DNA of 64,000 nt from Endomicrobiales bacterium (lineage in GTDB: Bacteria > Elusimicrobiota > Endomicrobiia > Endomicrobiales > JALOBY01), in contig CAWCNJ010000008.1 in NCBI GenBank assembly GCA_963796955.1, positions 224,001-288,000 of the forward strand, in the 5' to 3' direction. Shown one piece after another: positions 27,235 to 44,950 of this stretch (position 1 is the first letter of the stretch; the number at the start of each line of letters is the position of its first letter). The position numbers and the translations under genes were made by a program. Below the pieces are notes generated by a model. The model was not told the origin of the DNA. It ran no database searches and worked only from the letters and a program-made list of their open reading frames with translations.

Positions 27235-27247
27235 TGAAAAATATAAT

Positions 27248-27679
27248 ATGATTACCAAAGAGAAACTTTTTACCAAATCGCTGTTCGCACTGCACGTGCC
27301 CTGCAGCCCCTGCAACAATTGCGACATAGAGATCGCGGCGCTTTTCACGCCGCGGTTCGATGTCGAGAGGCTGGGTATCCAGCTGGTCGGTTCCGTGCGG
27401 CACGCCGATGTGCTGGTCTGCACAGGCTGTATCAACAATAAGATCGTACACCGTCTGCGTAAAATTTACGAGCAGGCGCCGAAACCGGTATACGTTATAG
27501 CGATCGGCGGCTGTGCGTGCTCCGAGATAATTTTCAAAGACTCGTACAATACATGCGGTCCTCTCGATAAGATATTACCCGTCGATGTGTATGTGCCGGG
27601 CTGCCCCCCGCGTCCTGAAGCAATGATGGCGGGCTTTTTAAAGCTTATTGAAAAGATTAAAGCAGGTAAACCAAAATGA
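27248..27679 (+). CDS. Group 4 [NiFe]-hydrogenase small subunit (NuoB/MbhJ-like)
   Basis: CNNCDIE, DVERLG, RHADVL, GGCAC, PGCPPRPE. Confidence 0.92.
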   Translation: MITKEKLFTKSLFALHVPCSPCNNCDIEIAALFTPRFDVERLGIQLVGSVRHADVLVCTGCINNKIVHRLRKIYEQAPKPVYVIAIGGCACSEIIFKDSYNTCGPLDKILPVDVYVPGCPPRPEAMMAGFLKLIEKIKAGKPK

Positions 27680-28131
27680 ATGAAACATTACAGAAAATTA
27701 AAGACAATTTCGGCGATACGATAACGGTCTGGGATGAAAGCCATGCAGGAAAGGTCTATATCGACCTTAACGACACGAAGATCAGGACGGTGGCAAGCCA
27801 TATGCACAACGCCGCTCACGCGCGATTCATTTCGATCACGGCTTCGGACGTCCCGTCCGGCATAGAGCTGTTGTATCATTTTTCTCTGGACAGCGCCGGT
27901 TTGGTCGTATCGTTCAGAGTACTGCTGGCAGACAAACAAGACCCTTCGATAGAAACGATCGCACCGTTGTTCAGGGGCGCCCACTGGATAGAGAGAGAAG
28001 TGCACGAGCTGATGGGTGTGAACTTCGCGGGGAACAGTGAACAGAACAATCACCTTCTGCTGCCGGAAGATTGGCCCGGGGGCGTCTATCCTCTCAGGAA
28101 AACCTTCGTCAGTGAAAAGGCAAGATCATGA
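27676..28131 (+). CDS. NuoC/MbhK-like subunit
   Basis: ELLYHF, WIEREVHELMGV.F, LLPEDWP..YPLRK. Confidence 0.88.
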   Translation: MNETLQKIKDNFGDTITVWDESHAGKVYIDLNDTKIRTVASHMHNAAHARFISITASDVPSGIELLYHFSLDSAGLVVSFRVLLADKQDPSIETIAPLFRGAHWIEREVHELMGVNFAGNSEQNNHLLLPEDWPGGVYPLRKTFVSEKARS

Positions 28132-29321: not shown

Positions 29322-31105
29322 TGCTGCTCTACCCGATAATGGTTCCGCTCTTCGCAAGTCTGGTGTTCATGCTCATACCGCGCCGTTTCAGCGCGGCGTG
29401 CCGTAACGCGCTTGCTTTTATTGCCGCCGCCAATATCGTTATTTGCTTTGCCATAGCTTTCAGGCAGGCAAAGGTTATATCAGAGCTGCTCAGGTTCGAT
29501 GCGCTCTCGGCCCTGGTCCTGGCCGGCGCGGCTTTTTTCGCCGCAGTGATCACCGCGTACGCCATCGGTTATTTCGACGCTGCGTTCAACTGGAAATCCT
29601 TCGGGATCTATGTTTGCTGGGCGATGGCCTGCGCCAGCGGCATCGCGCTCACCAATGATTTTGTACTCTTGCTGGTCTTCTGGGGTTTTCTGGGCCTGAC
29701 GTTATTCCTTATGATGAACCTTGATCCCAAGGCTTCCCAGGCCGCAAAAAAAATGCTTATCATCGTAGGCGGCACCGATATTTTGATGGCCGCGGGCATT
29801 GTGATCATCTGGTCTCAACGGAACAGCTGGATGATGAGCGGGACCCCCTTGCCGGTGACCGGGATCAATGTTATGGCTTTCATTCTGATAGCGGTCGGCG
29901 CGCTTGCAAAAGCCGGCGCTTTCCCGGTGCACTCCTGGCTGCCGGACGCCGCCGAGTTCTCTCCTGCGCCGTTCACCGCAATGCTGCCGGCCTCGCTGGA
30001 CAAATTGCTGGGCATTTATTTGCTGACGCGCGTCGTTACCGGCTTTTTTGAACCCGCGGCGCCTTTCATTACCGGCTTTCTTCTCATAATAGGTGCGATC
30101 ACCGTTTTTGGCGCGGCTATGATGTCGCTGGTCCAAAAGGACATGAAGAGGCTGTTAGGCTATTGCGCCGTCTCCCAGGTGGGTTTCATGGTCATCGGCA
30201 TCGGTACGGGAAACCTTATCGCCATGGCAGGCGGCCTGTTCCATATGCTCAATCACGCCATATACAAATCTTCTCTTTTCATGACGGCGGGTTCCGTCGA
30301 AAAACAGACCGGCACTACGGACCTGGACAAACTTGGCGGTTTGGCCAAGGCGATGCCGCTGACGTTCGTGAGCGCGCTTGTTGCATCGCTGTCGATCTCC
30401 GGTTTTCCGCCGTTCAACGGCTTCTTCTCAAAGTGGATGATATACCAGGGTCTGCTGGTCTCCTTCTCTCAAGACCATTCGGTGATCACGATCGTCGCGC
30501 TGCTCTCGGCCATGTTCGGCACCTCGCTGACATTGGCGGCCTTCATTAAGCTGTTGCACTCGGCCTATCTTTCTTTTCCGCGTTTGTCCCTGGAAAGCAT
30601 AAAGGAAGTCCCGCCGGTCATGTGGATATCTACCATGCTTTTGAGCGTACTGTGCCTGGTGCTTGGTATCGGTTCCATGAATTTCGTAGTGCCGCGCATT
30701 ATCCTGCCGGCCCTTTCAGCCGCCACCTCCGGCAATATTCCTTTGCTGGTCTACCCATCAGGTCTCGCGATAGCCTGCCTGTTGGGAAGCATCGCGGCGG
30801 GCATATTGTTCTACGTTATCACCGTGCTGCCGGTCAGAAAAGATTGCGCGTACCTGGGCGGGGAAAATGTGGATGAGAATTGCTACCCGACCGGCACCGA
30901 CTTTTACAGGACTTTTGAGACTGCACCGCTGCTCAGGAGCGTCTACCGTTGGTCGAAAAATAAATATCTGGATCTGTATGACCTTTCTGCGCGGGCATTA
31001 CGCAGCGCAGGTTCTGTACTTTCAGATATGCATGCCGGCGTATTAAATTCTTACGTGCTGTGGGTGGTCGCCGGCCTGATAGCACTGTTACTGGTATCCC
31101 TATGA
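29321..31105 (+). CDS. Antiporter-like proton-translocating subunit (NuoL/MrpA/HyfB-like)
   Basis: KAGAFPVHSWLPDA, SLDKLLG, HMLNHAIYKS.LF, PPFNGFFSKW. Confidence 0.88.
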   Translation: MLLYPIMVPLFASLVFMLIPRRFSAACRNALAFIAAANIVICFAIAFRQAKVISELLRFDALSALVLAGAAFFAAVITAYAIGYFDAAFNWKSFGIYVCWAMACASGIALTNDFVLLLVFWGFLGLTLFLMMNLDPKASQAAKKMLIIVGGTDILMAAGIVIIWSQRNSWMMSGTPLPVTGINVMAFILIAVGALAKAGAFPVHSWLPDAAEFSPAPFTAMLPASLDKLLGIYLLTRVVTGFFEPAAPFITGFLLIIGAITVFGAAMMSLVQKDMKRLLGYCAVSQVGFMVIGIGTGNLIAMAGGLFHMLNHAIYKSSLFMTAGSVEKQTGTTDLDKLGGLAKAMPLTFVSALVASLSISGFPPFNGFFSKWMIYQGLLVSFSQDHSVITIVALLSAMFGTSLTLAAFIKLLHSAYLSFPRLSLESIKEVPPVMWISTMLLSVLCLVLGIGSMNFVVPRIILPALSAATSGNIPLLVYPSGLAIACLLGSIAAGILFYVITVLPVRKDCAYLGGENVDENCYPTGTDFYRTFETAPLLRSVYRWSKNKYLDLYDLSARALRSAGSVLSDMHAGVLNSYVLWVVAGLIALLLVSL

Positions 31106-31644
31106 ACATGAACTCAATGGCAATATTACTGACCGTACTTATTTCGCTGATGGTCATCGGCGCTATCGCGGCTCTGGAAACAAAGAATATGTTCGCGGCT
31201 GTGCTCAGCTGGGCGGGAGCCTGTCTGACGCTTTCAGCTATATTTGTGATGCTTAACGCTCTCGATCTGGCGGTCGTACAACTGGCCGTCGAAATCATCG
31301 TTGTCGTGTTACTGCTGCGCGCTACCGCCAGTCTCGGAACGGAGACGCCGAGGGAACGCTCCGTGCTCAGCGCACTGCCGAGATATCTAACCGCGCTGCT
31401 TATGGCCGCCGGCTTTTTCATACTGTGTTATTTTGCCTTAAAAGATCTGCCGCCCTTTGGCCTGCCGTTGTTTAAAGCTGCGCAGACCGTGCTGAATAAC
31501 GGCTCGCAGACCACCGGCTTCACCAATCTTGCCGGCGCGGTATTCTTAAGGATCAGGTCTCTCGATGTTTTCGCGGCCGCAGCCCTGTTCTTCGCGGCTG
31601 TGCTTGGCGCGATGTCGCTGCTGCGCGGCAAGGGGCACAAATGA
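31102..31644 (+). CDS. MbhD/MbhE-like (DUF4040 + MnhB-related) membrane subunit
   Basis: A.DLAVVQLAVE, TNL..AVFL..RSLDVF; ATGA overlap. Confidence 0.7.
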   Translation: MNMNSMAILLTVLISLMVIGAIAALETKNMFAAVLSWAGACLTLSAIFVMLNALDLAVVQLAVEIIVVVLLLRATASLGTETPRERSVLSALPRYLTALLMAAGFFILCYFALKDLPPFGLPLFKAAQTVLNNGSQTTGFTNLAGAVFLRIRSLDVFAAAALFFAAVLGAMSLLRGKGHK

Positions 31645-32060
31645 AATTTATGTCACGTAAAACCGCAATAATTATACTGGTCGGCGCAGCCATGGTACTC
31701 GCGATCATTTTCTCGCTCCTCGGCGCGGCACTGCCGGGCGGCGCCTTCGCCTCGGGAATACTGTTTGCCGCAGCCTATATCACCGTTCTTTTTACTGTCG
31801 GCCGGCAGCAAATGGCGGAATATTGCTCCGTCGCGCAGCTGGTGGCTGTCAGCTGCAGTGGTCTGGCGCTCCTGCTGTTGTTATCCCTGCTTGGCTCCAG
31901 CAGCATTGGCTCGGGCAGCTTCATGGGTGACGCTTTCGCCGGCTCCAGGGTGTTCAGTATCATCGCTTTGAATATTTCGATCGCGCTTGCCTTCGGCGCC
32001 GGCATCAGCGGTATTGTAACTATTTTTTTAACATACGATCCCGCGGAGGACGCAGAATGA
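31641..32060 (+). CDS. MnhB/MbhF-like membrane subunit
   Basis: PGGAFASG motif, four TM segments, operon position. Confidence 0.65.
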   Translation: MKFMSRKTAIIILVGAAMVLAIIFSLLGAALPGGAFASGILFAAAYITVLFTVGRQQMAEYCSVAQLVAVSCSGLALLLLLSLLGSSSIGSGSFMGDAFAGSRVFSIIALNISIALAFGAGISGIVTIFLTYDPAEDAE

Positions 32061-32371
32061 TACTATACTCGCTCGCGCTTACCTTGCTGGCCCTCGGGAT
32101 ATACGGACTGCTGGCAAAAAAAGACCTGCTGAAAATATTCTTCTCTATATCGTTCATGGAGCTGGGCATGGTGCTGCTGTTCGTTGTTGCGGGTTACCGG
32201 CAGGACCCGTTCACCGGCTTAGGCGAAATGAGCCCGCTGAGCGAATCGATAACGATCTGTCTTCTTATCGCAGGCCTTGTTTTTACGGTGATCTTCGCGG
32301 CTCTGATGGTCCGGCTGAAAGCAAAATACGGCAGCCTTGATATAACCACCATGAGGAAACTAAAAGGATGA
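32057..32371 (+). CDS. MnhC/NuoK/MbhG-like subunit
   Basis: GIYGLL.KKDLLKI, YGSLDI..MRKLKG. Confidence 0.8.
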   Translation: MILYSLALTLLALGIYGLLAKKDLLKIFFSISFMELGMVLLFVVAGYRQDPFTGLGEMSPLSESITICLLIAGLVFTVIFAALMVRLKAKYGSLDITTMRKLKG

Positions 32372-33867
32372 CGATAAAACTGCTTCCCTTGTTCATACTA
32401 TTACCTTTTCTGCTCTCTGTTGCGATCACCCTGTGCAGGGGTTTCGCGAAGAACACCGAGAAGCTGATACCCCTTGTCGGCACGGCCGCGCTCTTCCTGC
32501 TCTCGATCGTTTCGATCAAGCCAGTATTTCAGGCATTAGTTTACCCGATCGCGGGCTTTCATCCGCCGGTCGGCTCACCCCTTATTTTCGACTCTTTATC
32601 CGTTGTCATGTTGATCGCCATCAATACGGTAACGTTCGCCGTTACCCTGTACTCGTGGAATTACATAGACAGCTACACCGGAGGTTGGAAATTCTTCGCG
32701 CTGCTGATGCTGATGTTGTGCGGCCTTAACGGCACGGTGCTTTCGGGCGATCTTTTCACCATGTACCTTTTCGTCGAACTCACGGCTATCACGGCCTACG
32801 TGCTTGTCGCCTTCGGTAACCGCGGCGCAGAGCTGGAGGCCGCGTTAAGATACCTTGTTCTGGGAACACTTGCCTCCATTCTTATATTACTCGGCATATG
32901 GCTGCTGTTCTCTTTTACCGGCACATTGAATTTTGCTGAATTATCGCGTTCGCTGCAAACCTTCGGCAATTCCTGGCTGACGAGGGCCGTCTTGCTTTTA
33001 TTTGTAACCGGTTTTGGGCTGAAAGCGGCGCTGGTACCGTTCCACGCCTGGCTGCCCGATGCCCATACTTCTGCGCCAGCCCCCGTATCCGCGATGCTTT
33101 CAGGACTGGTCATTAAAACACTCGGCATCTATGCTCTTGCAAGGATCATATTCAACGTTCTCGGCCTGACGCCCCACGCGGCCGCCGTGCTGATGCTGTT
33201 AGCGATGCTCTCTATTGTGATAGGTTCACTGCTGGCGCTGAGGCAGACCGATATCAAAAGGATGCTGGCGTACAGTTCTATAAGCCAGGTGGGTTTCATC
33301 GTCATGGGCCTGGCCCTTGCAACGCCGCTTGGTATCGTCGGCGCGCTGTTCCACCTGCTTAACCACGCTTTCGGCAAATCAACGCTGTTCCTCAACGCCG
33401 GTGCGGTGGAACACTCGACGGGCACGCGTGATTACGCACTGCTCGGAGGGCTCAAGGAAAAAATGCCGCTGACGGCCAATGTATCGCTGCTTGCTTCCAT
33501 GTCCATCGCGGGCGTTCCACCCTTCGCGGGCTTTTGGTCAAAGCTGATCATAATCATCGCCTGCGTGCAGGCCGGTTTCATAAATCTGGCTGTTTTTCTT
33601 GCCGCGGCAAGCATACTGACACTGGCCTATATGGTCAACCTGCAAAAAAGGGTTTTCTTCGGCACGCTTAAAGAGGCATTAAATGATGTTAAAGAAGCGC
33701 CGTTCTCCATGTGTTCTGCGATGGTGTTTTTAACCATTGTCAGCCTTTCGGCAATAACGCTGATGCTGCCGCTATTGTCGAACGCCGTATTCGTTAATGC
33801 GCAGCGGGTCCTGGCGTTGGGCGTTGACTACGCCCAGGTGCTTGTGCGGATCACGGGGAAATTCTAA
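32368..33867 (+). CDS. MnhD/MbhH-like antiporter subunit
   Basis: DLFTMYLFVE, KAALVPFHAWLPDAH..AP, KRMLAYSSISQ, PPFAGFWSK. Confidence 0.9.
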   Translation: MTIKLLPLFILLPFLLSVAITLCRGFAKNTEKLIPLVGTAALFLLSIVSIKPVFQALVYPIAGFHPPVGSPLIFDSLSVVMLIAINTVTFAVTLYSWNYIDSYTGGWKFFALLMLMLCGLNGTVLSGDLFTMYLFVELTAITAYVLVAFGNRGAELEAALRYLVLGTLASILILLGIWLLFSFTGTLNFAELSRSLQTFGNSWLTRAVLLLFVTGFGLKAALVPFHAWLPDAHTSAPAPVSAMLSGLVIKTLGIYALARIIFNVLGLTPHAAAVLMLLAMLSIVIGSLLALRQTDIKRMLAYSSISQVGFIVMGLALATPLGIVGALFHLLNHAFGKSTLFLNAGAVEHSTGTRDYALLGGLKEKMPLTANVSLLASMSIAGVPPFAGFWSKLIIIIACVQAGFINLAVFLAAASILTLAYMVNLQKRVFFGTLKEALNDVKEAPFSMCSAMVFLTIVSLSAITLMLPLLSNAVFVNAQRVLALGVDYAQVLVRITGKF

Positions 33868-34136
33868 TGAATATATCCACTAGTATCATTGCGGTTGTCA
33901 TATGTGCGATAGTGCTTACTGCTTTTCGTCTATGGACAGGTAAAAACGTTCAGGGACGTATTACGGCGATCATCGCGCTGGAAGCACTGCTCATAGCATT
34001 TGCCCTTACCGTGGCGGCCGTGAGGGGAAGCGCAGTGCTGCTTCTCGTGACCGCCGCGTGGCTTGTTCAGGCCGGAATGCTGCTTATTGTATTGACGAAA
34101 ATCGGCGAGTCGTTAAAGGCGGACCACACCGAATGA
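33867..34136 (+). CDS. Small membrane subunit, MrpF/MbhB-like (divergent)
   Basis: Three TM segments, FRLWTG...GRITA pattern like MrpF R..GP...DR. Confidence 0.5.
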   Translation: MNISTSIIAVVICAIVLTAFRLWTGKNVQGRITAIIALEALLIAFALTVAAVRGSAVLLLVTAAWLVQAGMLLIVLTKIGESLKADHTE

Positions 34137-34756
34137 AATACCCGAAACTACGCGAGTTGAAGGAAGCGCTCAAAGCGATATTCAAAGGCCCCTTCACCAA
34201 TAAATTTCCCTTCGCGCCGCACACCGCGATGCCGGGTTTTCGCGGCCGACCGACCCCATCCGACAAGCACTGTATCGGCTGCGGCGCCTGCGCCGCGGTC
34301 TGTCCGCCGGGAGCGATCACGGTTGTAGAAGACCTGAAGGCGAACCCGCCGACAAGGAAATTAGTTTGGAATTATGACGTCTGCATTTTTTGCGGCCAGT
34401 GCGAACGGTTGTGCACGACCGAAAAAGGCGTAAAACTTACCCAGGAATATGACCTGGCGACGTACGACAGGGCCGGTCTTACAGACAGCGTTCAAAAGGA
34501 ACTGGTAGTCTGTGAATGCTGCAACACGGTCATTGCCCCGAAGGAACAACTGCTGTGGGCAGCCAGAAAACTAGGTCCGCTTTCTTCGGGCAATTTCAAC
34601 CTCACATTCACGGTGCAAAAAGATCTTAAGATAGCTGATGATGTTAAAACTGAACTGCCCGATACACCGGCCGCCAGGGCTAACCTGTACCGGGTGTTGT
34701 GCCCGAAGTGCCGGCATACGGTGCTTGTCTTCAACCAGACCGGAAAACAACCCTGA
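34133..34756 (+). CDS. NuoI/MbhN-like 4Fe-4S subunit with extra Cys pairs
   Basis: GPFT.KFP, FRG.P, CIGCGACAAVCP, CIFCGQCERLC, CECC...CPKC. Confidence 0.88.
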   Translation: MKYPKLRELKEALKAIFKGPFTNKFPFAPHTAMPGFRGRPTPSDKHCIGCGACAAVCPPGAITVVEDLKANPPTRKLVWNYDVCIFCGQCERLCTTEKGVKLTQEYDLATYDRAGLTDSVQKELVVCECCNTVIAPKEQLLWAARKLGPLSSGNFNLTFTVQKDLKIADDVKTELPDTPAARANLYRVLCPKCRHTVLVFNQTGKQP

Positions 34757-34759
34757 AGT

Positions 34760-35224
34760 ATGGGTGGCTTAAAAGACTTTCTGGCAAAGGCGCGCAAACC
34801 CCTTATCTTCGCGGGTGTCGGCAACAAAGAGCTGTCCGATGACGGCGCCGGCCCCGCTCTCGCCGGCAGGATCTTAAACCCGGCGTTCGAGACCGTCGAT
34901 TGCGGTACCGTACCTGAAAATTTTCTTGAAAAGATAGCTGCACTGAAGGCTGCAACAATAGTGATCATAGACGCGACCGACCTGAGAACCACGCCCGGCT
35001 CCTACTCCATTCTCCCCGCTCACCAGATCGCTCATGCAGCTATCTCAACCCACGCGTTATCGCTCGGTATGATGGCGCAGTATCTTTCTTCAGAGGGAAC
35101 CTCTGAGTTGTACCTTCTTGCTGTACAGCCGCGGACGATCTCAGAGGGTGCGTGTTTAAGCGGACCTGTCGAGAAGACCATTTTGGAACTGGCGACAATT
35201 ATTAATGCCTATCAAGAACGATAA
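34760..35224 (+). CDS. hycI: Hydrogenase maturation endopeptidase (HycI-type)
   Basis: GVGN..LSDDGAG, CGTVPEN, IIDA, STHAL. Confidence 0.88.
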   Translation: MGGLKDFLAKARKPLIFAGVGNKELSDDGAGPALAGRILNPAFETVDCGTVPENFLEKIAALKAATIVIIDATDLRTTPGSYSILPAHQIAHAAISTHALSLGMMAQYLSSEGTSELYLLAVQPRTISEGACLSGPVEKTILELATIINAYQER

Positions 35225-37502
35225 GACGATCACAAAAAAAATATTGATACGGGGAACCGTTCAAGGCATAGGCTTTCGCCCCGCTGTGCACAGGATAGCC
35301 GCCCGGCTCCGCCTGACCGGTTCCGTCGCCAATACGTCCGCCGGCGCCGAGATCATACTGGAGGGACCGGCGAACAACGTAAATAAGTTCATACCTGCGT
35401 TAAAAAAACAGCTGCCGCCGGCCTCAAAGATCACATCCCTCACCAGTGCCATGGTCCCGGCACGAGGCTTCAAGAACTTCACTATCACAGACTCGTCAAA
35501 AGATAAAAGCACTACCGCCGATCTGCCGCCTGACCTTGCGACCTGTCCAAAATGCCTCAGGGAACTTTTCACCTCATCCGACCGAAGGTACCGCTATCCA
35601 TTCATTAACTGCACGGAATGCGGACCGCGCTACACGATCTCGACCGGTTTGCCCTACGACCGCCCCGAAACGACTATGGCGGACTTTTCCATGTGCGCCG
35701 CCTGTGAAAAGGAATATCAGTCCGCGCACGATCGCCGCTTCCATGCCCAGCCCAACGCCTGCGGCGATTGCGGACCGCAGCTGACGCTCATGGATAAACA
35801 ATGGCATGTCGTGGCCAAAGAAGACGAGGCGGTCGCCAGATCCGTGGAATATTTGCAGAAAGGGAAGATACTTGCGGTGAAAAGCCTGGGCGGCTATCAC
35901 CTGGCCTGCGACGCCAGGAACCCGAACGCCATCGCCTGCCTGCGCATGCGCAAGCAGCGCCCGCATAAACCTTTCGCCGTTATGCTGCCGGACATCGCCG
36001 CTGTTCATGAATATTGTCATGTCAGCAAGGCGGAGCGGACACAGCTTTTATCAGCCGCCAGGCCGATCGTATTGTTGCGAAAAAAGATCCGGGTTGCCCG
36101 CTTAAGCCTGCCGCTGTATGATATCGCCCCGGACAACGCCTACATGGGTGTCATGCTGCCGTACACGCCGCTGCACAACCTGTTGTTCCGCCCGGCAATG
36201 GATCGGGCATGGCGGCCGCGCGCCCTTATCATGACGAGCGGAAATCGTTCAGATGAACCGATATGCAGCACGGAACCGGAAGCCCGCAGCCGGCTGGCGG
36301 GTATTGCCGACTTTCTGCTGACGAACGACCGTCCGATCCATAACCGCGCCGACGACTCCATAGTGCAGGTAATGCCTTCCGGCAACACGGTCGTAGTGCG
36401 CAGAAGCCGCGGTTTTGCGCCCCGTCCGGTAACGCTATCGATCCCCGGGGGGACACCTGCTATTTTTGCCGCCGGCGCCGAATTAAAGAACACGTTCTGT
36501 CTGACCCGGGGTTCGCAGGCCTATATTTCCCCGTACATAGGAGATCTGGACAGCGCCGAAGCGCTCTCATTCTACCGGGAATCATTCGAGCGGAACAAAA
36601 AATTTCTCGATGTAAACCCTGCGATCATAGCTCATGATCTGCACCCCGACTATCATTCAACGATCTTCGCCCGGGAACTGCGCTCAAAGGATAGGACGCT
36701 TAAACGAATTGCCGTTCAGCATCATCAGGCGCACATTGCCTCGGTCATGGCCGAGCACCGGCAGAAGGGACCGCTCACCGGCATCGCCTTCGACGGTACC
36801 GGTTTGGGGCTTGACGGCACTATCTGGGGTGGGGAATGTTTTACGGTTAATGCCGCGGGCGTTTTCGAACGCGGGGCGCACATTGGTTACTTTGCCCTGC
36901 CGGGCGGCGATATCGCCGCGCGCGAGATATGGCGGCTGGCTGTTTCCCTGCTGCACCAATCCGGGATATCAAAAGTCCCGAAGCATTTAAAAGCCTATCC
37001 CGTAAAAATGACGCGGCAGATGATACAGAAGAATATGAACAGCCCCCGGTGCTGCAGCGTCGGCAGATTATTTGACGCGGTAGCCGCGATAATTAACCTG
37101 CGGACCGAGTGTTCTTTTGAGGCGCAGGCGGCCATGGAGATGGAAGCGCTGGCAGTGGACACACCGACAAAAAAAGGATATAATTTTGTTTTCAAAGACG
37201 GTATAGTGCCTGTCGAGCCGATCATTCAGGCGGTGTACGCGGACTTTATGGCAGGGGTGCCTTCATTTGAGATAAGCGCCAGTTTTCACCTTACCTTAAG
37301 CCGCATTATTATCGCGCTGGCCGAACATTTTAATAACCGGACGGTTGCGTTAAGCGGCGGCGTTTTTCAGAACCGCGTGTTGTTGGATCTGGCGGAAAAA
37401 CAGCTGCTCAACGCAGGTTTCAAGGTGTATTATAATAATAGTGCCCCCATAAATGACGGCGGGATTTCTCTGGGGCAGGCGTATATCGCCGCAAAGGAAT
37501 AA
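35205..37502 (+). CDS. hypF: Carbamoyltransferase HypF
   Basis: GTVQGIGFRP, CPKC/CTECGPRY zinc fingers, RRFHAQP, HDLHPDY, QHHQAH, NDGGISLGQ. Confidence 0.96.
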   Translation: MPIKNDKTITKKILIRGTVQGIGFRPAVHRIAARLRLTGSVANTSAGAEIILEGPANNVNKFIPALKKQLPPASKITSLTSAMVPARGFKNFTITDSSKDKSTTADLPPDLATCPKCLRELFTSSDRRYRYPFINCTECGPRYTISTGLPYDRPETTMADFSMCAACEKEYQSAHDRRFHAQPNACGDCGPQLTLMDKQWHVVAKEDEAVARSVEYLQKGKILAVKSLGGYHLACDARNPNAIACLRMRKQRPHKPFAVMLPDIAAVHEYCHVSKAERTQLLSAARPIVLLRKKIRVARLSLPLYDIAPDNAYMGVMLPYTPLHNLLFRPAMDRAWRPRALIMTSGNRSDEPICSTEPEARSRLAGIADFLLTNDRPIHNRADDSIVQVMPSGNTVVVRRSRGFAPRPVTLSIPGGTPAIFAAGAELKNTFCLTRGSQAYISPYIGDLDSAEALSFYRESFERNKKFLDVNPAIIAHDLHPDYHSTIFARELRSKDRTLKRIAVQHHQAHIASVMAEHRQKGPLTGIAFDGTGLGLDGTIWGGECFTVNAAGVFERGAHIGYFALPGGDIAAREIWRLAVSLLHQSGISKVPKHLKAYPVKMTRQMIQKNMNSPRCCSVGRLFDAVAAIINLRTECSFEAQAAMEMEALAVDTPTKKGYNFVFKDGIVPVEPIIQAVYADFMAGVPSFEISASFHLTLSRIIIALAEHFNNRTVALSGGVFQNRVLLDLAEKQLLNAGFKVYYNNSAPINDGGISLGQAYIAAKE

Positions 37503-37504
37503 TT

Positions 37505-37723
37505 ATGTGCCTTGCAGTACCCGGTAAAATACTTTCTATCAACAAGGAGCGCAAGGCTGAGGTTGATTTCGGCGGAGTGACCCGTTCGGTACAATTGGAC
37601 CTGGTGCCTGCGGCGGCGTGCGGCGATTATGTGATCGTCCATGCCGGCTACGCTATTCAACAACTTTCAAAACAACAGGCTCAGGAAACCCTTGATATCA
37701 TCAAAGAGGCGTTCGGTTCCTGA
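37505..37723 (+). CDS. hypC: Hydrogenase chaperone HypC
   Basis: MCLAVPG, GDYVIVHAGYAI. Confidence 0.96.
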   Translation: MCLAVPGKILSINKERKAEVDFGGVTRSVQLDLVPAAACGDYVIVHAGYAIQQLSKQQAQETLDIIKEAFGS

Positions 37724-38277
37724 TGAGCAGGCAATTTGTTATGAACGACCTGGCAACACCCCGCCTGTTGCTGAGAAAGCTCACTCTTAATGATGCCCCC
37801 GATATGTTCGAATACGCCAGTGATCCGCAGGTTCCGCTCTATACCCTCTGGGAAGCCCACGAAACGATCGACTGCACCCGTACGTTCATCAATACCGTTC
37901 TTGCCGGTTACCATGTTAATGAGACTGAGCCATGGGGAATAATATACCGCGAGAACGAAAAGCTGATCGGCACCGTCGGGTTTTTCGATTACCGGGAAAC
38001 CGAAGGTATCGGTGAAATCCATTACGCCCTCTCACGCGCCTATTGGGGAAAGGGCCTGATGCCGGAAGCCGTAAAAGAAGTGATACACTATGGTTTCGAC
38101 GCCCTGGAACTGAACACCATCACCGCGAAATGCATGTTGCAAAACCTGGCCTCCGAAAAAGTAATGCAGAAAGCCGGTATGACCTTTAAGGAAATACGGG
38201 CTGAGGCGATAGAGGCGAAAGGCAAAAAATGGGACGCGAAAGTGTATTACATTAAACGATCTGACCGATCCGTCTGA
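37723..38277 (+). CDS. GNAT acetyltransferase, RimJ/RimL family
   Basis: TPRLLLR, YWGKGLMPEA, NLASEKVMQKAGM. Confidence 0.88.
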   Translation: MSRQFVMNDLATPRLLLRKLTLNDAPDMFEYASDPQVPLYTLWEAHETIDCTRTFINTVLAGYHVNETEPWGIIYRENEKLIGTVGFFDYRETEGIGEIHYALSRAYWGKGLMPEAVKEVIHYGFDALELNTITAKCMLQNLASEKVMQKAGMTFKEIRAEAIEAKGKKWDAKVYYIKRSDRSV

Positions 38278-38297
38278 TCTGACTGATCCGCCCGATC
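38258..38297. repeat. Nonamer array of five GATC sites at 9-bp period
   Basis: GATCTGACC GATCCGTCT GATCTGACT GATCCGCCC GATC. Confidence 0.75.
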
Positions 38298-38309
38298 AAA
38301 GGGGTAACA

Positions 38310-38645
38310 ATGGAAAACAACAACGACACACATTTCTTAACATTAACCATGATGCTGGCCCAGGCAGCCTGGCAGCAGTTGGGGAAAGTTGCCAATCCCA
38401 TGACCGGTAAGATAGAAAAGGATCTAACGCACGCGCAGATGTCCATTGATATGCTGAGAATGCTCAAAGACAAGACCAAAGGCAACCTGCAGCCGGAAGA
38501 GGAAAAGATATTGTCGAACGCTGTCTGCGACCTGGAATTAAATTACGCCGATGAGGTAGACAAGACCTCTAAAGAACCAAAGAAAACGGAAACCACTCCT
38601 GCTAACGACCAACTGAAAGCTGATGAAAACAAATCCCAAGGTTAA
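38310..38645 (+). CDS. DUF1844 family protein
   Basis: LGK..NP.TGK.EKDL..A..SIDML.ML..KTKGNL..EE. Confidence 0.8.
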   Translation: MENNNDTHFLTLTMMLAQAAWQQLGKVANPMTGKIEKDLTHAQMSIDMLRMLKDKTKGNLQPEEEKILSNAVCDLELNYADEVDKTSKEPKKTETTPANDQLKADENKSQG

Positions 38646-39645
38646 CATCATGGAGGTGTGCGGCACGCACACCATGTCCATTGCCAGGCACGGACTGAAA
38701 AGCATCCTTTCTGAAAGAGCGAAACTACTTTCGGGCCCGGGCTGCCCGGTATGCGTTACGCCGGTCGGCGATATCGACGTTGCGATCGCGCTTTCTAAAA
38801 TACCGAACGTCATTATCACCACCTTCGGCGATATGCTGAAGGTCCCGGGATCCACCTCGTCTCTTGAAAAAGAGCGGGCGAACGGTGCCGATGTGCGTAT
38901 GGTGTATTCCAGTGCCGATGCATTGGAGCTTGCAACTGCAAACCCGGCGAAAGAAATCGTTTTTCTCGGCATAGGTTTTGAGACCACCTCACCCGCAATA
39001 GCCGCCACCATCGCGGCGGCAAAAAAGGCCGATATCAGGAACTTCTCCGTGCTGCCCATGTTCAAGATGGTCTTACCGGCGCTGAAATATATTTTGGATA
39101 TCAAGGGCCATAAGATCGACGCCTTTATTTTACCGGGCAATGTTTCGGCGATAATCGGATCCGATACCTATAGCTTCATACCTCAGAAATACCACATTCC
39201 GGGAGTTATTGCCGGTTTTGCGCCCAGCGAAATTTTACAAGCCGTCGATATGATATTTGAACAGCTGAAGTCCGGTGTGCCCAAAGTCGGTGTAGAATAC
39301 GGTATTGTGTCGCCGGAAGGCAACCCCACGGCGAAAAGGCTGTTGAAAGAGGTTTTTTGCATACAAGACTCTACCTGGCGCGCGATCGGTAGAATACCCA
39401 AAAGCGGCATGGGTATCTGCAAAGCCTATGCCGGCTGGGATGCGTCAAGGAAATTCAAGATCACGGTACCGCCGCCAAAAGAACCGAAGAATTGCAAATG
39501 CGGCGAGATCCTGCTGGGCTTAAAACTGCCGGACAACTGCAAACTCTTCGCCAAAGCCTGCACTCCCGAACACCCGGTTGGCCCCTGCATGGTATCCAGC
39601 GAAGGCAGCTGCGCCGCACATTTTAAGTACGGAAAGGTCCTCTGA
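38623..39645 (+). CDS. hypD: Hydrogenase formation protein HypD
   Basis: MEVCGTHT, GPGCPVCVTP, GFETT, GPCMVSSEGSCAA. Confidence 0.95.
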   Translation: MKTNPKVNIMEVCGTHTMSIARHGLKSILSERAKLLSGPGCPVCVTPVGDIDVAIALSKIPNVIITTFGDMLKVPGSTSSLEKERANGADVRMVYSSADALELATANPAKEIVFLGIGFETTSPAIAATIAAAKKADIRNFSVLPMFKMVLPALKYILDIKGHKIDAFILPGNVSAIIGSDTYSFIPQKYHIPGVIAGFAPSEILQAVDMIFEQLKSGVPKVGVEYGIVSPEGNPTAKRLLKEVFCIQDSTWRAIGRIPKSGMGICKAYAGWDASRKFKITVPPPKEPKNCKCGEILLGLKLPDNCKLFAKACTPEHPVGPCMVSSEGSCAAHFKYGKVL

Positions 39646-40647
39646 ATGGAAAAAATATTATTGGCGCACGGCGCGGGCGGCAAATTAACGCATGACCTTA
39701 TAAAAACGCTTTTCAGATCGAAATTTTCAAATCCAACGCTCAACCGCATGGATGATTCCGCACTATTGAAGGCCGGCGGCGAACGTTTGGCGTTCACCAC
39801 GGATTCATTCGTGGTCAACCCGGTCATTTTTCCCGGCGGGGATATCGGTAAGCTGGCCGTCTGCGGCACTATCAACGATCTTGCCATGGCCGGCGCGCAG
39901 CCGCTTGCCATTTCTGTCGCCGCGATAATCGAGGAAGGCTTACCGCTCAGCCTGTTGAAAACCATTACCGCATCCATCGCAAAAGCTGCCGCTGAGGCAG
40001 GGGTCATTATCGCGACCGGAGACACGAAGGTGGTGGAAAAAGGCAAAGCCGATAAGCTATTCCTGACCACGACCGGGATAGGCATCGTAAAAAAGGGCAT
40101 AAAACTCTCCGGTTCTTTCGCAAAACCCGGCGATCGGATACTTATTAACGGCAGCATCGCGGAACACGGCATGGCGGTGATGGGCGCCCGCAACGATTTT
40201 AAATTCAAGTCCGCTATCATGAGCGACTGCGCCCCCCTGAACAAGCTTACCGGAGCATTATTAGCAAAGTGTCCGCAAACCCATGTCTTAAGAGACCCGA
40301 CCCGGGGCGGTGTCGCGACAACGCTCAATGAGATCGCCGAACAATCCGGCGTCGGCATCATACTGAACCAATCCGCCATCCCCGTGCAAAAAATGGTACG
40401 CGCGGCCTGCGAACTGCTGGGCATAGACCCTTTATACGTCGCAAATGAAGGGAAGGTTTTGGCTTTTGTGCCTCAGAGTCAGTCTTTAAAGGCTTTAAGC
40501 GCTTTAAAGAGCTGCAAATATGGTATACACTCAACTATTATCGGCGAGACCGTGACGGCGCCTCTGGGTGTCTGGCTTAAAACGACCTCCGGAGGGATGC
40601 GGCCTCTGACCATGCTTACCGGAGACCAGCTGCCCAGGATCTGCTGA
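39646..40647 (+). CDS. hypE: Carbamoyl dehydratase HypE
   Basis: HGAGG, TTDSFVV, GDTKVV, RDPTRGG, ANEG, C-terminal LPRIC. Confidence 0.96.
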   Translation: MEKILLAHGAGGKLTHDLIKTLFRSKFSNPTLNRMDDSALLKAGGERLAFTTDSFVVNPVIFPGGDIGKLAVCGTINDLAMAGAQPLAISVAAIIEEGLPLSLLKTITASIAKAAAEAGVIIATGDTKVVEKGKADKLFLTTTGIGIVKKGIKLSGSFAKPGDRILINGSIAEHGMAVMGARNDFKFKSAIMSDCAPLNKLTGALLAKCPQTHVLRDPTRGGVATTLNEIAEQSGVGIILNQSAIPVQKMVRAACELLGIDPLYVANEGKVLAFVPQSQSLKALSALKSCKYGIHSTIIGETVTAPLGVWLKTTSGGMRPLTMLTGDQLPRIC

Positions 40648-40663: not shown

Positions 40664-41014
40664 ATGAAATATATTATAATTTTGTTGTCATGCCTGTTCT
40701 TTAGCTTGTTGCCTTTACGCGCCGCGGAATTCATGGCCAATGACCCCTACAGATCGTATGTTCAACAAGTCCACAACCAGATATCACAGCACTGGACTTA
40801 CAAAGGTACCCGTCTGAAGGCTACCGTGCATTTTTTTATTGATCGCGACGGTAAGCTGGAAGGCGTACCAATAGTCAGCGAGCCTTCAGGTGATAGCACG
40901 TATGACGCCCTTGCCGTCAGAGCTGTTTACGACAGCGAACCTTTTCCGCCTCTGCCGAAAGATTATAACGAGAAGACTTTCGAAGTGTATTTCGAATTTT
41001 CGCCGATCAAATAG
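40664..41014 (+). CDS. Secreted TonB/TolA C-terminal domain protein
   Basis: Signal peptide, I..HW, F.IDRDG, SG...YD..A.RAV....PFPPLP. Confidence 0.75.
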   Translation: MKYIIILLSCLFFSLLPLRAAEFMANDPYRSYVQQVHNQISQHWTYKGTRLKATVHFFIDRDGKLEGVPIVSEPSGDSTYDALAVRAVYDSEPFPPLPKDYNEKTFEVYFEFSPIK

Positions 41015-41045: not shown

Positions 41046-42023
41046 ATGAAAGTGCTTGTGACCGGTTCAAACGGATTCGTCGGAAGCCATATCGTTCAAT
41101 ACCTTGCCGGGCTCGGGCATGAGGTGACCTGCCTGGTCAGGGCTACCAGCGATTGCCGCTGGATCAATGGTCTGGACGTATCATGTGTGACCGGCGACAT
41201 AGAGGATCCGCGAACCTTACAGGACGCGGTCCGCGCTGTGGATGTGATCGTGCATGCGGCAGCCCTGGTACGGGCAAACACACCCGAAGAATATTTCGCC
41301 GTTAACGCGGCCGGGACCCGGAATCTCGCCCGGGCGGTATTACAGAACAATCCTTCTCTTAAACAATTCATTTTGATATCATCCCAGGCCGCGATGGGGC
41401 CGAGCCCCGCGCTGCGGCCAAAACTGATCAGCGAGACCAACACACCCGTATCGGATTATGGCCGAAGCAAACTGGCGGGTGAGCTGGAGCTTATCAGAAC
41501 GCTGGAGGGCACCGTGCCTTACACCATACTACGCCCTACCAGTGTCTACGGGCCGCGCGATAAGGATATCCTGATCTTTTTCCAGTTGATAAATCTGGGA
41601 TTAAGACCAAAAACAAGCGATCAACGGTTCATTCAGCTGCTATATGTAGATGATATACCCGTAGCGGTGGAACGCGCCATGAGCCTGCCGGCGGCACGGA
41701 ATAAGATATATTGTCTGGGTGAGCCGGCCTGGCGCACCTGGCCGCACCTGGGCGAAGTGATGGCGATAGCGAACGACCTGAACACCCGCAGCATTCCGGT
41801 GCCGGACTGGGCTTTCACCGCGACCTCATTTGTCGCCGAGACCATAGCCCGGATATCCGGCAAGCCGGCCGTACTTAACCGGCAGAAGATCGAGGAAATG
41901 AGACAGCGTTTCTGGATAGCGGATGTCACCGCTGCCGTCAGCGAGTTGGGGATGGACTTTACAAATCTCTCCAGAGGTGCTAAAATCACGTATCAGTGGT
42001 ATAAAGAAAACAAGTGGCTGTAA
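41046..42023 (+). CDS. NAD-dependent epimerase/SDR; candidate ceramide (3-keto) reductase, CerR-like
   Basis: TGSNGFVG, ISSQAA, YGRSK, LRP..VYGP.D; adjacent to spt and GNAT. Confidence 0.7.
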   Translation: MKVLVTGSNGFVGSHIVQYLAGLGHEVTCLVRATSDCRWINGLDVSCVTGDIEDPRTLQDAVRAVDVIVHAAALVRANTPEEYFAVNAAGTRNLARAVLQNNPSLKQFILISSQAAMGPSPALRPKLISETNTPVSDYGRSKLAGELELIRTLEGTVPYTILRPTSVYGPRDKDILIFFQLINLGLRPKTSDQRFIQLLYVDDIPVAVERAMSLPAARNKIYCLGEPAWRTWPHLGEVMAIANDLNTRSIPVPDWAFTATSFVAETIARISGKPAVLNRQKIEEMRQRFWIADVTAAVSELGMDFTNLSRGAKITYQWYKENKWL

Positions 42024-42057
42024 TTACATACTTATTTGTGTTTTGCAAAGGGGAGAA

Positions 42058-43362
42058 ATGCAGACAGATATTTTCAGTAAATGTGTAAAATTCAATACCG
42101 CTCACGAAATAATGGCCGCGGGGCTCTACCCGTACTTCCACCAGACCGAGTCCGGCCAGGGACCCGAGATAATTATCGACGGAAAATCCAGGGTTGTGTG
42201 TTGTTCTAACAATTACCTTGGGCTGGCGAACAATCCCAAAGTCAAAGAAGCATCACGCAGGGCTATTGAAAAATACGGCACCTCCTGCACCGGCTCGCGA
42301 TTCCTGAACGGGACGATAGACCTGCACATTAAGGTCGAACAGCGTTTCGCCAGCTTTGTCGGCAAAGAATCCGCGATCCTTTTTACGACCGGCCACCATG
42401 CGAACCTCGGCGCCATTTCCACCCTCGTAGGCAAGAATGATATAGTGCTTACGGACAAACTGGACCATGCCTCTATCATCGACGGTTGTCATTTAGCCCA
42501 TGGCGAAATGGTCCGCTACCGTCATAACGACATGGACGACCTTAAACGTCTGCTTGAGAAACATTGCGAAGCGGCAAAACTTATCGTTGTGGACGGTGTA
42601 TTCAGCATGGAAGGCGATATCTGCGACCTGCCTGAAATAGTTAAACTTGCCCGCACCTATGGCGCCAGGATCATGGTGGATGAGGCCCATTCGTTAGGAG
42701 TTCTGGGGGCCTCGGGCAGAGGCACCGGAGAACACTTCGGGCTCCAGCATGAAGTTGATGTGGTCATGGCCACCGCTTCGAAATCCCTGGCCTCCATCGG
42801 CGGCTTCATCGCAAGCCGCGAAGAAGTGATACACTACGTTAAACATCTTTCCAGATCATTGATATTTACCGCCTCCCTGCCGCCCGCGAACGTGGCGGCT
42901 ATCGACGCTGCCCTTGAGGTGATGGAAACCGATAAAACATTAAAAAAACGGTTGTGGCATAATGCGAATAAAATGAAGGAAGGATTCCAGTCGCTGGGCT
43001 TTAACACCGGCTCTTCCGTTACCCCGATCATCCCGATCACCGTGGGCGACGATATGAAGGCCTTCCAGATGTGGCGGATGCTGTTCGATGAGGGCGTGTT
43101 CTGTTCTCCCGTCGTGAGCCCCGCCGTGCCGGAAGGACACGCGATAATCCGCACCAGTTATATGGCCTCGCACACCGACGAACAGCTTGATTACGTGCTG
43201 GACCGGTTCGAGAAAGTAGGCAAGCACCTGGGGATAATCCCGGGCGGCACGCGCCGGCCCAAAGCTGAAACTAAACAGGCGCGTTTCACATTTTCCAAAG
43301 AACAAATGGCGGCTGCGACCAAGAACTGGCTGAAAAATCTATGGCCCCTGAACGGCAGGTAA
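42058..43362 (+). CDS. spt: Alpha-oxoamine synthase, most likely serine palmitoyltransferase
   Basis: GLYPYF, SNNYLGL, GTSCTGSRFLNGT, DHASIIDG, DEAHS, TASKSLAS (PLP Lys); no bio or tdh genes nearby. Confidence 0.75.
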   Translation: MQTDIFSKCVKFNTAHEIMAAGLYPYFHQTESGQGPEIIIDGKSRVVCCSNNYLGLANNPKVKEASRRAIEKYGTSCTGSRFLNGTIDLHIKVEQRFASFVGKESAILFTTGHHANLGAISTLVGKNDIVLTDKLDHASIIDGCHLAHGEMVRYRHNDMDDLKRLLEKHCEAAKLIVVDGVFSMEGDICDLPEIVKLARTYGARIMVDEAHSLGVLGASGRGTGEHFGLQHEVDVVMATASKSLASIGGFIASREEVIHYVKHLSRSLIFTASLPPANVAAIDAALEVMETDKTLKKRLWHNANKMKEGFQSLGFNTGSSVTPIIPITVGDDMKAFQMWRMLFDEGVFCSPVVSPAVPEGHAIIRTSYMASHTDEQLDYVLDRFEKVGKHLGIIPGGTRRPKAETKQARFTFSKEQMAAATKNWLKNLWPLNGR

Positions 43363-43364
43363 CA

Positions 43365-44477
43365 ATGAAATTCATAACGGTACAAACAAAAGCCGAATTA
43401 CACGATTTCATCACGTTCCCCTGGAAGATATACGCGGGTGACCCGCTGTGGGTACCGCAGCTGATAGAGGATTACGTATTTACCATGACGGAGCAGAACC
43501 CTTTCTGGGAACACGCCGAGAAAGAATTCTATATCTGTTACAACGATAAAGGTGAGCCGGTGGGCCGCATAGCCGCGATCATAGACCATAATTACATTAA
43601 GTTCCAGGATGAGAGCTGCGGTTTTTTCGGCTTCTTTGAATGCATAAACAACGTTTCGGTCGCAAAGGCTTTACTGGACAAAGTGCGCAACTGGCTGCAC
43701 CTTAAGGGCGTAAAACTGATGCGCGGCCCGATGAACCCTTCTACGAACGATGAGTGCGGTTTTCTCTGCGAAGGCTTTGATTCCGCACCCCGGCTTATGA
43801 TGCCGTACAATCCGCCGTATTATCTTTCGCTGATGGAGCAGGCCGGGCTGAACAAAGCGAAGGAACTCTACGCCTACGATATGGATGTGACGGAAGGGCC
43901 CATCAAGCGTCTGGAACGCCTTGCCGAGATCGCAAGGAAAAAGCTTCCGGGCCTCACGGTACGGCCGTTCAAACTTTCGGACTTCAAGAATGAAATATAC
44001 AAGGCGGTAAAAGTTTACAACGCCGCCTGGGAAAAGAACTGGGGCTTTGTGCCCTGGACGGAAAAAGAATTCTATACGATCGCCAATAAGTTAAAGGACC
44101 TGCTGTTGCTGGAAACAACGCTGTTGGCCGAGATCAACGGCGAACCGGTGGGAATGCTTATCGCGGTACCGGATTACAATCTGGTGATGCAGAAGATGAA
44201 TGGCAGACTCTGGCCCTTCGGCATCTTCAAGTTCCTCTGGTATAGAAGGAAGATCAAGGCTTTGCGCCTGATGATCATGGGTGTGGTCAAGGACTTCCGC
44301 CAGAAGGGGATAGAAGGCGTTATGTACTACGAATCGCTGAAAAGCTCGCAAAAACTCGGCTATACCAAGTGCGAGTTTTCCTGGATACTGGATGACAATG
44401 TGCTTACACAACGGGCCGCGGAAATGATGGGCGGTAAGTTGTATAAGAAATACAGGATATATGAAACAAACGTTTAA
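43365..44477 (+). CDS. Double-GNAT YghO-like protein; candidate bacterial ceramide synthase bCerS
   Basis: FI.FPW.IY..DPLWVP, NPFW, GRIAAI, FGFFEC, GPMNPSTNDECG, MMPYNPPYY, NWGFVP, E.SWIL.DN, K.YRIY. Confidence 0.72.
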   Translation: MKFITVQTKAELHDFITFPWKIYAGDPLWVPQLIEDYVFTMTEQNPFWEHAEKEFYICYNDKGEPVGRIAAIIDHNYIKFQDESCGFFGFFECINNVSVAKALLDKVRNWLHLKGVKLMRGPMNPSTNDECGFLCEGFDSAPRLMMPYNPPYYLSLMEQAGLNKAKELYAYDMDVTEGPIKRLERLAEIARKKLPGLTVRPFKLSDFKNEIYKAVKVYNAAWEKNWGFVPWTEKEFYTIANKLKDLLLLETTLLAEINGEPVGMLIAVPDYNLVMQKMNGRLWPFGIFKFLWYRRKIKALRLMIMGVVKDFRQKGIEGVMYYESLKSSQKLGYTKCEFSWILDDNVLTQRAAEMMGGKLYKKYRIYETNV

Positions 44478-44512: not shown

Positions 44513-44950
44513 ATGGCAGTAGCTAAGAAAGCAGCAGCTAAGAAAGCGGCGCCTAAAAAGGTAAAGAAGCAGGCGGTCCCGCAGGAAACAGCGTGTATCG
44601 CGGAGGTAATGCCAAAAGCTCCTGCGCGCGTTCGAGCCTCAAAGCCTAAGACAACGGAAGCAGCGGCCAATACAAATGAACCGGTCGTATATGTCGTTAT
44701 AGACCATCCCGTCAACAATGAGCTACTGGTCCCGGGCCATTACGCTATCCGTATCGGCGCAAGCTGGGGCGGTATCGTGGAATTCCAGATCAATGACGCC
44801 GATTGGATACCCTGCCGCCATAACGCGGGCTATTGGTGGTTTGACTGGCACAACATACCGGCCGGTAAACACAAACTCGCGGCACGGCTTGTCGATAACA
44901 ACGGCACGGTGCTGAAAAAAAGCGCGATACGCCGCGTAGAAGTCAAGTAA
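44513..44950 (+). CDS. Hypothetical protein: Lys/Ala-rich N-terminus plus Ig-like beta domain
   Basis: AKKAAAKKAAPKK; IDHP...YAIRIGA..VEFQIND..W..C....YWWFDW....G.H.L.AR; strong RBS AAGGAGG. Confidence 0.75.
   Translation: MAVAKKAAAKKAAPKKVKKQAVPQETACIAEVMPKAPARVRASKPKTTEAAANTNEPVVYVVIDHPVNNELLVPGHYAIRIGASWGGIVEFQINDADWIPCRHNAGYWWFDWHNIPAGKHKLAARLVDNNGTVLKKSAIRRVEVK

Follow-up and report, generated by a model that had tools for sequence, protein, structure and literature searches.

A putative ceramide biosynthesis cluster conserved across the Endomicrobiales, with a decayed spt gene in two genome-reduced relatives

Results

The sequence under study is a 64,000-nucleotide stretch of an Endomicrobiales genome (assembly GCA_963796955.1, contig CAWCNJ010000008.1, positions 224,001 to 288,000; hereafter the window), in which three consecutive forward-strand genes form a likely ceramide biosynthesis cluster, cerR-spt-bcerS. 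The first encodes an extended SDR of 325 aa, a putative CerR-like reductase (41046..42023; Pfam Epimerase, E 3e-34). It is followed by a pyridoxal phosphate (PLP) enzyme of 434 aa, which we read as a serine palmitoyltransferase (Spt) of the Bacteroidota/deltaproteobacterial type from its best family, NF047600, and its place in the Spt clade (42058..43362), and by a tandem-GNAT acyltransferase of 370 aa, assigned to the YghO/bCerS family by homology to YghO and by fold (43365..44477). The three genes were described as contiguous and co-oriented in a first-pass annotation made from the sequence alone, and the gaps of 34 bases (SDR-spt) and 2 bases (spt-GNAT) agree with this. The spt start was placed at the ATG at 42058, behind a purine-rich stretch, within a mechanical open reading frame (ORF) that begins at 41923; the GNAT ORF has an in-frame ATG at 43341 that overlaps the end of spt. 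The G+C content at codon position 3 is 0.64-0.67 in the trio and 0.63-0.65 in its neighbours, and thus gives no sign of recent transfer. The genome (2.1 Mb, 81% complete) belongs to the order Endomicrobiales, phylum Elusimicrobiota, as the earlier annotation had guessed, and lies outside f10, the largest family of the order (89 of 104 genomes), presumed to be Endomicrobiaceae.

The identity of the PLP enzyme was examined by family scores, structure scores and phylogeny. The motifs originally quoted for it are all present (GLYPYF at residues 22-27, SNNYLGL at 50-56 and GSRFLNGT at 79-86). Among NCBIfam profiles NF047600 (SerpalmtaseCFB) scored 524.7 bits, as compared to 421.6 for the BioF/Kbl subfamily, 405 for Kbl and 397.3 for BioF; among PDB entries the Sphingobacterium multivorum Spt scored 402 bits, a BioF/Kbl enzyme 307, other bacterial Spt proteins 294-302 and Kbl 281. 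In both comparisons Spt thus ranks first by approximately 100 bits. The protein is 41% identical to the E. coli B spt product (ECD_02854), and the two retrieve each other first in best-hit searches in both directions. A phylogeny of the alpha-oxoamine synthases (38 sequences, 392 columns; LG+G4, fast search) unites it in one clade (SH-aLRT 93.2, aBayes 1) with sequences of Nitrospirota, Bacteroidota, deltaproteobacterial and myxobacterial origin. Those from Bacteroides and Parabacteroides pass the NF047600 cut-off at 700 and 684 bits; a Myxococcaceae homolog fails it at 513. The E. coli B and Sphingomonas Spt proteins join through a weak node (68.2/0.72), and the next node (96.8/1) also includes two unassigned paralogues, while three Kbl, two BioF and two HemA references fall outside the Spt clade. 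The comparison with Spt, BioF, Kbl and HemA proposed in the first-pass annotation therefore groups the enzyme with Spt, and the grouping with BioF or Kbl that would have contradicted it is absent.

The residues surrounding the PLP-serine adduct have been located in the S. multivorum enzyme, as described in the available parts of PMC10196870. Its N52, G80, S81, H138, S185, T241, S243 and K244 correspond to N51, G79, S80, H137, S183, T239, S241 and K242 of the window protein, including the PLP lysine (K242) and the stacking histidine (His137), and the acyl-wall residues Y27/F83 correspond to Y26/F82. Met271, a main-chain contact in the same description, is replaced by Ile269. The G-T-F-S-K-S motif, called characteristic of SPT in that source, reads A-T-A-S-K-S here; the catalytic T-x-S-K-S is retained, and the motif varies among relatives. 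Phe114 is replaced by His113 throughout the order. The window protein also carries a C-terminal tail of about 40 residues (43246-43362) with a Trp/Lys/Leu-rich end. Such a tail is found in most families of the order and in several other Elusimicrobiota, and is absent (395 aa) from the genus g11 and some other genera of f10. A role of the tail as membrane anchor was considered and found to be unsupported, its amphipathicity not being strong (moment 0.49; best internal helix, 0.72).

The sole other member of the family in this genome is an alpha-oxoamine synthase on contig C4 with 38% identity. Its neighbours, judged by their N-terminal sequences, we take to be bioA-, bioD- and bioB-like, and the protein reads as a separate BioF of a bio operon. 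Second alpha-oxoamine synthases (40-46% identity, frames of 561-582 aa) were seen in G009 (L157:3850-5574), G012 (C76) and G045 (C30); these fall outside the main Spt clade.

The GNAT and the SDR were compared with E. coli B and Sphingomonas genes, used as references in place of the Caulobacter proteins. According to the accessible text of PMC9386255, E. coli BL21 yghO and ECD_02852 are homologs of the Caulobacter acyltransferase and reductase, and BL21(DE3) carries its own five-gene cluster; the references having been assigned by homology in that paper, the suggested link to the tested Caulobacter enzymes is indirect, one step removed. The GNAT, single-copy in the genome, aligns over its full length with BL21 YghO (ECD_02850; 32% identity, 379 columns, E 3e-67), and is 31% identical to the Sphingomonas counterpart and 28% to a Bacteroides homolog. 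Its nearest named relative is an Endomicrobiales locus (L001), with 65% identity for the GNAT and 75% for Spt. No solved relative was found by sequence (best E 0.41). An AlphaFold model built from a 60-row alignment has a pLDDT of 94, and its top structure matches are the tandem GNATs 5kf1 and 7q3a (E 4e-14 to 9e-14, TM 0.61-0.65). The description of this protein as a YghO-like double GNAT is thus sustained by both the identity to YghO and the fold.

The SDR displays the motifs of its family (TGxxGxxG at 6-12, Arg32 after the second strand, Asn87, Ser113 and YxxxK at 138-142). It matches BL21 ECD_02852 with 28% identity (E 2e-31) as reciprocal best hit, and the Sphingomonas gene with an E-value of only 6e-21; in the PDB it has a weak match to 3wj7 alone. 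A periplasmic location and the reduction of oxo-ceramide are taken as characteristic of the Caulobacter CerR; the N-terminus of the window SDR leads directly into the Rossmann strand, as it does in the E. coli and Sphingomonas references. The reciprocal searches suggested at the outset were run against the E. coli B stand-ins: E. coli yghO and epi each retrieve the window gene as first match in the genome, and the window SDR retrieves E. coli epi first. Together with co-location with spt, this reciprocity speaks for the SDR/epimerase being CerR-like, as had been proposed, and yet it is the weakest assignment of the three.

To describe the association of the three genes we used 80 named loci from many phyla, selected on the GNAT alone. 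All three genes were present in 50 of these, GNAT and Spt in 12, GNAT and SDR in 2, and the GNAT alone in 16. Nitrospirota, Acidobacteriota and deltaproteobacterial records often carry the trio, and in clusters of Aureispira and Rubrobacter, too, Spt and GNAT are accompanied by an SDR of this type. A search of the order's 104 genomes recovered Spt in 86 of them, with corresponding numbers of 91 for the GNAT and 88 for the SDR; a hand count from the coordinates gave 71 genomes in which the trio is adjacent and in the same order. Ten of the remaining genomes have it split at contig ends, two have the GNAT elsewhere, and in G003, G008 and G016 the sole GNAT match is at 28-29%. With all three genes in 50 of the 80 loci and 71 of the 104 genomes, the association is more than chance. 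The trio is intact even in genomes of 0.5-0.8 Mb (G048, G053, G056 and G076). In the phylum as a whole, an Spt match at E <= 1e-125 is present in 196 of the 251 genomes with a completeness of 85% or more; of 15 loci from its other orders and classes, 14 have spt adjacent to the GNAT, and in 3 of these 14 the SDR is there too.

Several variant arrangements were encountered. The whole trio is present in two copies in G034 (C13 and C24). In G003 (L158:3588-5533) and G008 (L159:4423-6411) no GNAT stands behind spt; a Bacteroides-like GNAT, in G003 46% identical to a B. finegoldii homolog, is found elsewhere with a classical SDR behind it; the two may represent a substitute ceramide synthase and a 3-ketosphinganine reductase. 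A Rubrobacter radiotolerans plasmid carries spt-GNAT-SDR beside an LTA-synthase-family gene (L163:4908-8275), and Priestia megaterium plasmids carry a lone gene of the Spt clade (L164:5007-6221).

A different situation was met in the genus g11 (44 genomes of 0.2-1.4 Mb), which, judging from genome size, is probably Endomicrobiellum, the flagellate endosymbionts of PMC11257099. No intact spt was found in two of its members, G010 and G020, both 99% complete. Between SDR and GNAT these genomes retain an spt remnant, of about 710 bases in G010 (L102:5879-6588) and about 240 bases in G020 (L101:5895-6135). Compared with an intact relative, the G010 remnant differs by 0.34/0.35/0.40 at the three codon positions and has 12 indels; in three pairs of intact spt genes the corresponding values are 0.09-0.12/0.05-0.07/0.34-0.41. 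The flanking SDR and GNAT genes of both genomes have no indels, as compared to about 21 expected at the rate of the remnant, and between the two genomes their ratios of non-synonymous to synonymous substitution (dN/dS) are 0.17 and 0.20 at dS 0.72 and 0.65. When the distances were split with three outgroups, dN/dS was 0.11-0.27 per branch; these values come from pairwise distances. As the remnant has decayed while the flanking genes are free of indels and have a low dN/dS, the GNAT and SDR appear to have been under purifying selection long after the loss of Spt. The corrected second-position distance of the G010 remnant (0.47) suggests that the inactivation of spt is at least as old as that genome's own branch, an estimate that misalignment of the decayed gene inflates.

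G010 and G020 are sisters (95/93), and a single loss of spt rests only on this grouping and on the depth of decay. A shared frameshift was considered as proof of a single loss and rejected, since the apparent insertion can be explained by the junction at the GNAT start. The two genomes share changes at otherwise invariant columns (L59S and P255A in the SDR, Q278Y in the GNAT).

The lipid A genes of the same genus were examined in parallel. In G020, lpxA, lpxC, lpxB and kdtA are broken (G020:C1:878700-883550). G049 and G066 (83% complete) are without lipid A genes and retain the trio; only an lpxC remnant, between bamA- and fabZ-like ORFs, is left in G066 (L155:9715-13187). Altogether, 8 of the 44 g11 genomes lack intact lpxC, lpxB or kdtA. 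The GNAT and SDR are retained in G020, G049, G066 and G074 (60% complete), and the other four, tiny genomes of 0.2-0.4 Mb (34-76% complete), have neither ceramide nor lipid A genes. The proposition that the two gene sets are never both lost was rejected on account of these four. The pattern of lacking lipid A while keeping the GNAT is not significant, because 33 of the 44 genomes keep a GNAT match anyway. In the window genome, lpxC, lpxB and kdtA are intact.

The trio is embedded in a longer co-directional run, with 31 and 35 bases to the flanking genes. A scan for promoters and terminators gave no excess over shuffled sequences (5 vs 7.4 and 7 vs 10.2, respectively), so that no such signal delimits the transcript of the trio within this run. 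Upstream, genes for a NiFe large subunit, membrane antiporter subunits, HycI, HypF, HypD and HypE at 26206-40647 bear out the earlier view of a hydrogenase-bearing lineage. The block as a whole (23977-40647) reads as a membrane-bound NiFe hydrogenase that includes antiporter subunits of the Mrp/Mbh type; genes for proteins with 4Fe-4S and NAD-binding domains stand before it, and the maturation genes after it. In several families of the order the ceramide cluster comes directly after hypD/hypE. In the window, a small protein with a TonB C-terminal domain is encoded on the same strand between hypE and the SDR gene (40664..41014; PF13103, E 4e-15). It had no tblastn match in 12 relative loci and is not part of the pathway.

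Immediately downstream, on the same strand, lies a gene for a Lys/Ala-rich protein of 145 aa with a possible Ig-like C-terminal domain (44513..44950), followed by nusB and a ligA-like ORF. This hypothetical protein has no Pfam or NCBIfam match; its top atlas cluster is an Elusimicrobiota hypothetical (0.95), with Big_7 clusters at 0.77-0.81 as a lead only. Of the 11 spt-region loci fetched, 7 have a homolog downstream; another homolog lies beside the separated GNAT of G001, and none was seen at this position in G010 and G020. It is probably not part of the pathway. Further away, the window holds a plsX-fabH-fabD-fabG-fabF cluster about 23 kb upstream of the trio (12424-17856), a likely source of acyl donors, a 621-aa ORF without a Pfam match at E 1e-8 (21903-23768), and a two-domain phospholipase-D-family protein (58321-59355) that is presumably cardiolipin-synthase-like.

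Discussion

Family scores, phylogeny, reciprocal matches and linkage all support the reading of the trio as cerR-spt-bcerS, and a dihydroceramide-type sphingolipid, formed along the known bacterial route, is the likely product of this cluster, which is conserved across the Endomicrobiales. From the genes observed, with their families, linkage and distribution, we infer the following chemistry. The PLP enzyme, by its family, tree position and active site, would form a 3-ketosphinganine-type base by condensing a long-chain acyl thioester with L-serine. The cluster is without a dedicated acyl carrier protein (ACP), and so the donor is probably acyl-CoA or a housekeeping acyl-ACP; the acyl-CoA could be supplied through three strong matches to the AMP-binding family found elsewhere in the genome. 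The tandem GNAT, judging from its homology to YghO and bCerS, would then N-acylate the base with a second fatty acyl chain, and the SDR would reduce the 3-keto group with NAD(P)H, the weakest inference of the three steps and one placed after acylation by analogy with Caulobacter. In that organism acylation before reduction is supported in the available text of PMC11087976, which also notes a rival order. No head-group enzyme was found within the cluster. As the genome retains lpxC, lpxB and kdtA, the ceramide would sit in the envelope alongside lipopolysaccharide (LPS).

A number of observations weigh against this assignment. The PLP enzyme, at 524.7 bits, is under the curated NF047600 cut-off of 640 and is not filed under this equivalog. 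In E. coli BL21 it scores 290 bits with Spt and 278 with Kbl, a narrow margin. The tree is a fast search without a cysteate acyltransferase row, and the node between the two Spt subgroups is weak. The substitutions of ATASKS for GTFSKS and of His113 for Phe114 may bring with them a change of substrate. In 18 of the 80 loci, some of them cut by contig ends, the GNAT family has no Spt nearby, and the SDR is not near spt-GNAT in 12 of the 15 loci from other Elusimicrobiota orders and classes. Finally, the SDR is only 25-28% identical to the proteobacterial references, and its best NCBIfam match is HpnA at 117.8 bits, under the cut-off of 367.65.

The same facts lend themselves to other explanations. 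An Spt of the same architecture that prefers alanine, glycine or another amino acid, and so leads to a 1-deoxyceramide or a related aminolipid, would agree with the order-wide changes near the PLP site, to which Thr78 for Ala79 may be added; according to the accessible parts of the respective sources, the S. multivorum Spt weakly accepts Ala and Gly (PMC10196870) and anoxic water is rich in 1-deoxysphingolipids (PMC11334938). However, the contacts to the serine hydroxyl and carboxyl described for that enzyme (N52, G80, S81, H138 and S243) are all retained, and we consider another base improbable. Doubts about the SDR lead to a second scenario, in which Spt and the GNAT make oxo-ceramide or rely on another reductase, and the SDR is HpnA-like with another job or reduces the free base before acylation. 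The low identity, the HpnA match and the loci without an adjacent SDR are what this scenario would predict, and the order of steps is itself disputed in PMC11087976, as far as its available text goes. It is nevertheless quite improbable, in view of the presence of such an SDR beside Spt and GNAT in 50 of the 80 loci from many phyla and in the Aureispira and Rubrobacter clusters, its reciprocal best match with the E. coli B gene, and the joint absence or breakage of SDR and GNAT in G031, G060-G062 and G063.

Formation of a capnine-type sulfonolipid from cysteate is suggested by the cysteate fatty acyltransferases (CapB/SulA; PDB 28EH and 7U7H), which belong to the same superfamily and share the alpha-oxoamine synthase fold and chemistry, as described in the accessible portions of PMC13692747. 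Against it, the window protein scores far lower with the two solved cysteate enzymes (257 and 232 bits) than with Spt (402), and has a serine-type pocket: Gly81-Ala82 and Lys280 of the cysteate enzyme, as given in that text, are matched by Gly79-Ser80 and Ala272 (mapped from the M-F motif). We regard this explanation as very improbable. Scarcely more credible is a BioF or Kbl identity of the PLP enzyme, with the three genes adjacent but unrelated; the BioF and Kbl profiles do score high (397-422 bits), but this is contradicted by the structure scores and the tree position, by the separate BioF in the bio cluster and by a linkage with the GNAT that is conserved across phyla. A dihydroceramide-type product appears to be the best account of the locus.

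The cluster resembles the Caulobacter crescentus pathway (Spt CC_1162, bCerS/aca CC_1154 and CerR/epi CC_1164 in the parts of PMC11087976 and PMC9386255 available to us) in its three enzyme families, with 41%, 32% and 28% identity to the E. coli B counterparts. It differs in that no AcpR match was found in the cluster or the genome, no AasR in the cluster (the best match, on another contig, is at 26%), and no match to the LptF/G paralogues of the reference cluster; of the rhodobacterial five-gene pathway (aasR, epi, acpR, spt, aca), AcpR and AasR are thus not beside the window spt. Unlike Caulobacter, the window Spt is of the other subgroup and the order SDR-spt-GNAT forms one run. The best structural match is the S. 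multivorum Spt (PDB 3A2B and 8GUH), whose serine- and PLP-contacting residues, as far as described, are retained, while ATASKS, His113, the tail and the sub-threshold NF047600 score set the window protein apart. In Bacteroidota, going by the available text, spt is usually unclustered; here it is clustered with the GNAT and the SDR. A further likeness is to the 'Spt-like' clade B of a Black Sea study, as given in the accessible text of PMC11334938, which includes anaerobes with Spt, bCerS and CerR homologs close together.

The suggestion that the trio would extend the range of sphingolipid producers by a new lineage was overstated. The same study, in its available text, raises the predicted producers from 9 to 38-40 phyla on the same kind of gene evidence, anaerobes included, and the trio is common in the Nitrospirota, deltaproteobacterial and Acidobacteriota records mentioned above; the window trio adds one lineage to a pathway for which predictions exist in about 40 phyla. 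Elusimicrobiota are not named in the main text of PMC11334938 or its preprint, as far as available, and may be in a figure or supplement. A comparative genomics study of the order (PMC11257099) has no sphingo, ceramide or palmitoyl in its main text, and among the matches listed for the four of its five supplements that were searched 'sphingo' occurs in taxon names. Our literature search found no paper linking Elusimicrobiota with serine palmitoyltransferase, and for Elusimicrobiota and sphingolipid no title on this pathway among the matches listed.

What is new here is the decayed spt between intact, selected GNAT and SDR genes in G010 and G020. Retention of these two genes without spt suggests salvage of a long-chain base from the host; in the simplest mechanism, the GNAT and SDR would finish the host-derived base. 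Searches for endosymbiont sphingolipid salvage via a bacterial ceramide synthase and for Spt in parabasalid hosts found nothing. Several findings count against salvage. In G063, which is close to G020 (10-13% third-position difference), all three genes are broken (L116:3755-5959), with frameshifts in the SDR and the GNAT. Its lipid A genes, in contrast to those of G020, are intact (lpxB, lpxC, kdtA and two copies of lpxA). No match to any trio gene was found in G031 and G060-G062 (90-97% complete, in 90-270 contigs). The GNAT and SDR can thus be lost, and G020, with a single AMP-binding match that is a broken fragment, may be at a late stage of decay. Another substrate for the GNAT is also possible, since the family occurs elsewhere without Spt, and the four tiny genomes that have neither ceramide nor lipid A genes likewise count against the salvage reading.

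Taken by itself, the window cluster is a useful annotation and no surprise. Its distribution matters more: the cluster is near-universal in the order, and with a close Spt in most of the Elusimicrobiota genomes searched, the outcome of a lipid analysis on one cultured strain would bear on a large part of the phylum. One may tentatively combine the observations into a scenario, on balance a doubtful one, in which ceramide was an envelope lipid already of the ancestral Endomicrobiales and survives reduction to 0.5-0.6 Mb, G010 and G020, probable endosymbionts of termite flagellates, salvage the base, and ceramide replaces LPS in G020, G049 and G066. If true, a bacterial half-pathway would complete the sphingolipid of a eukaryotic host, and, should the spt-less relatives acylate and reduce bases of the host, bCerS and CerR would serve for salvage within a eukaryotic cell. 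These symbionts would then offer a natural test of the disputed order of acylation and reduction, and of the replacement of lipid A by sphingolipids outside the Alphaproteobacteria.

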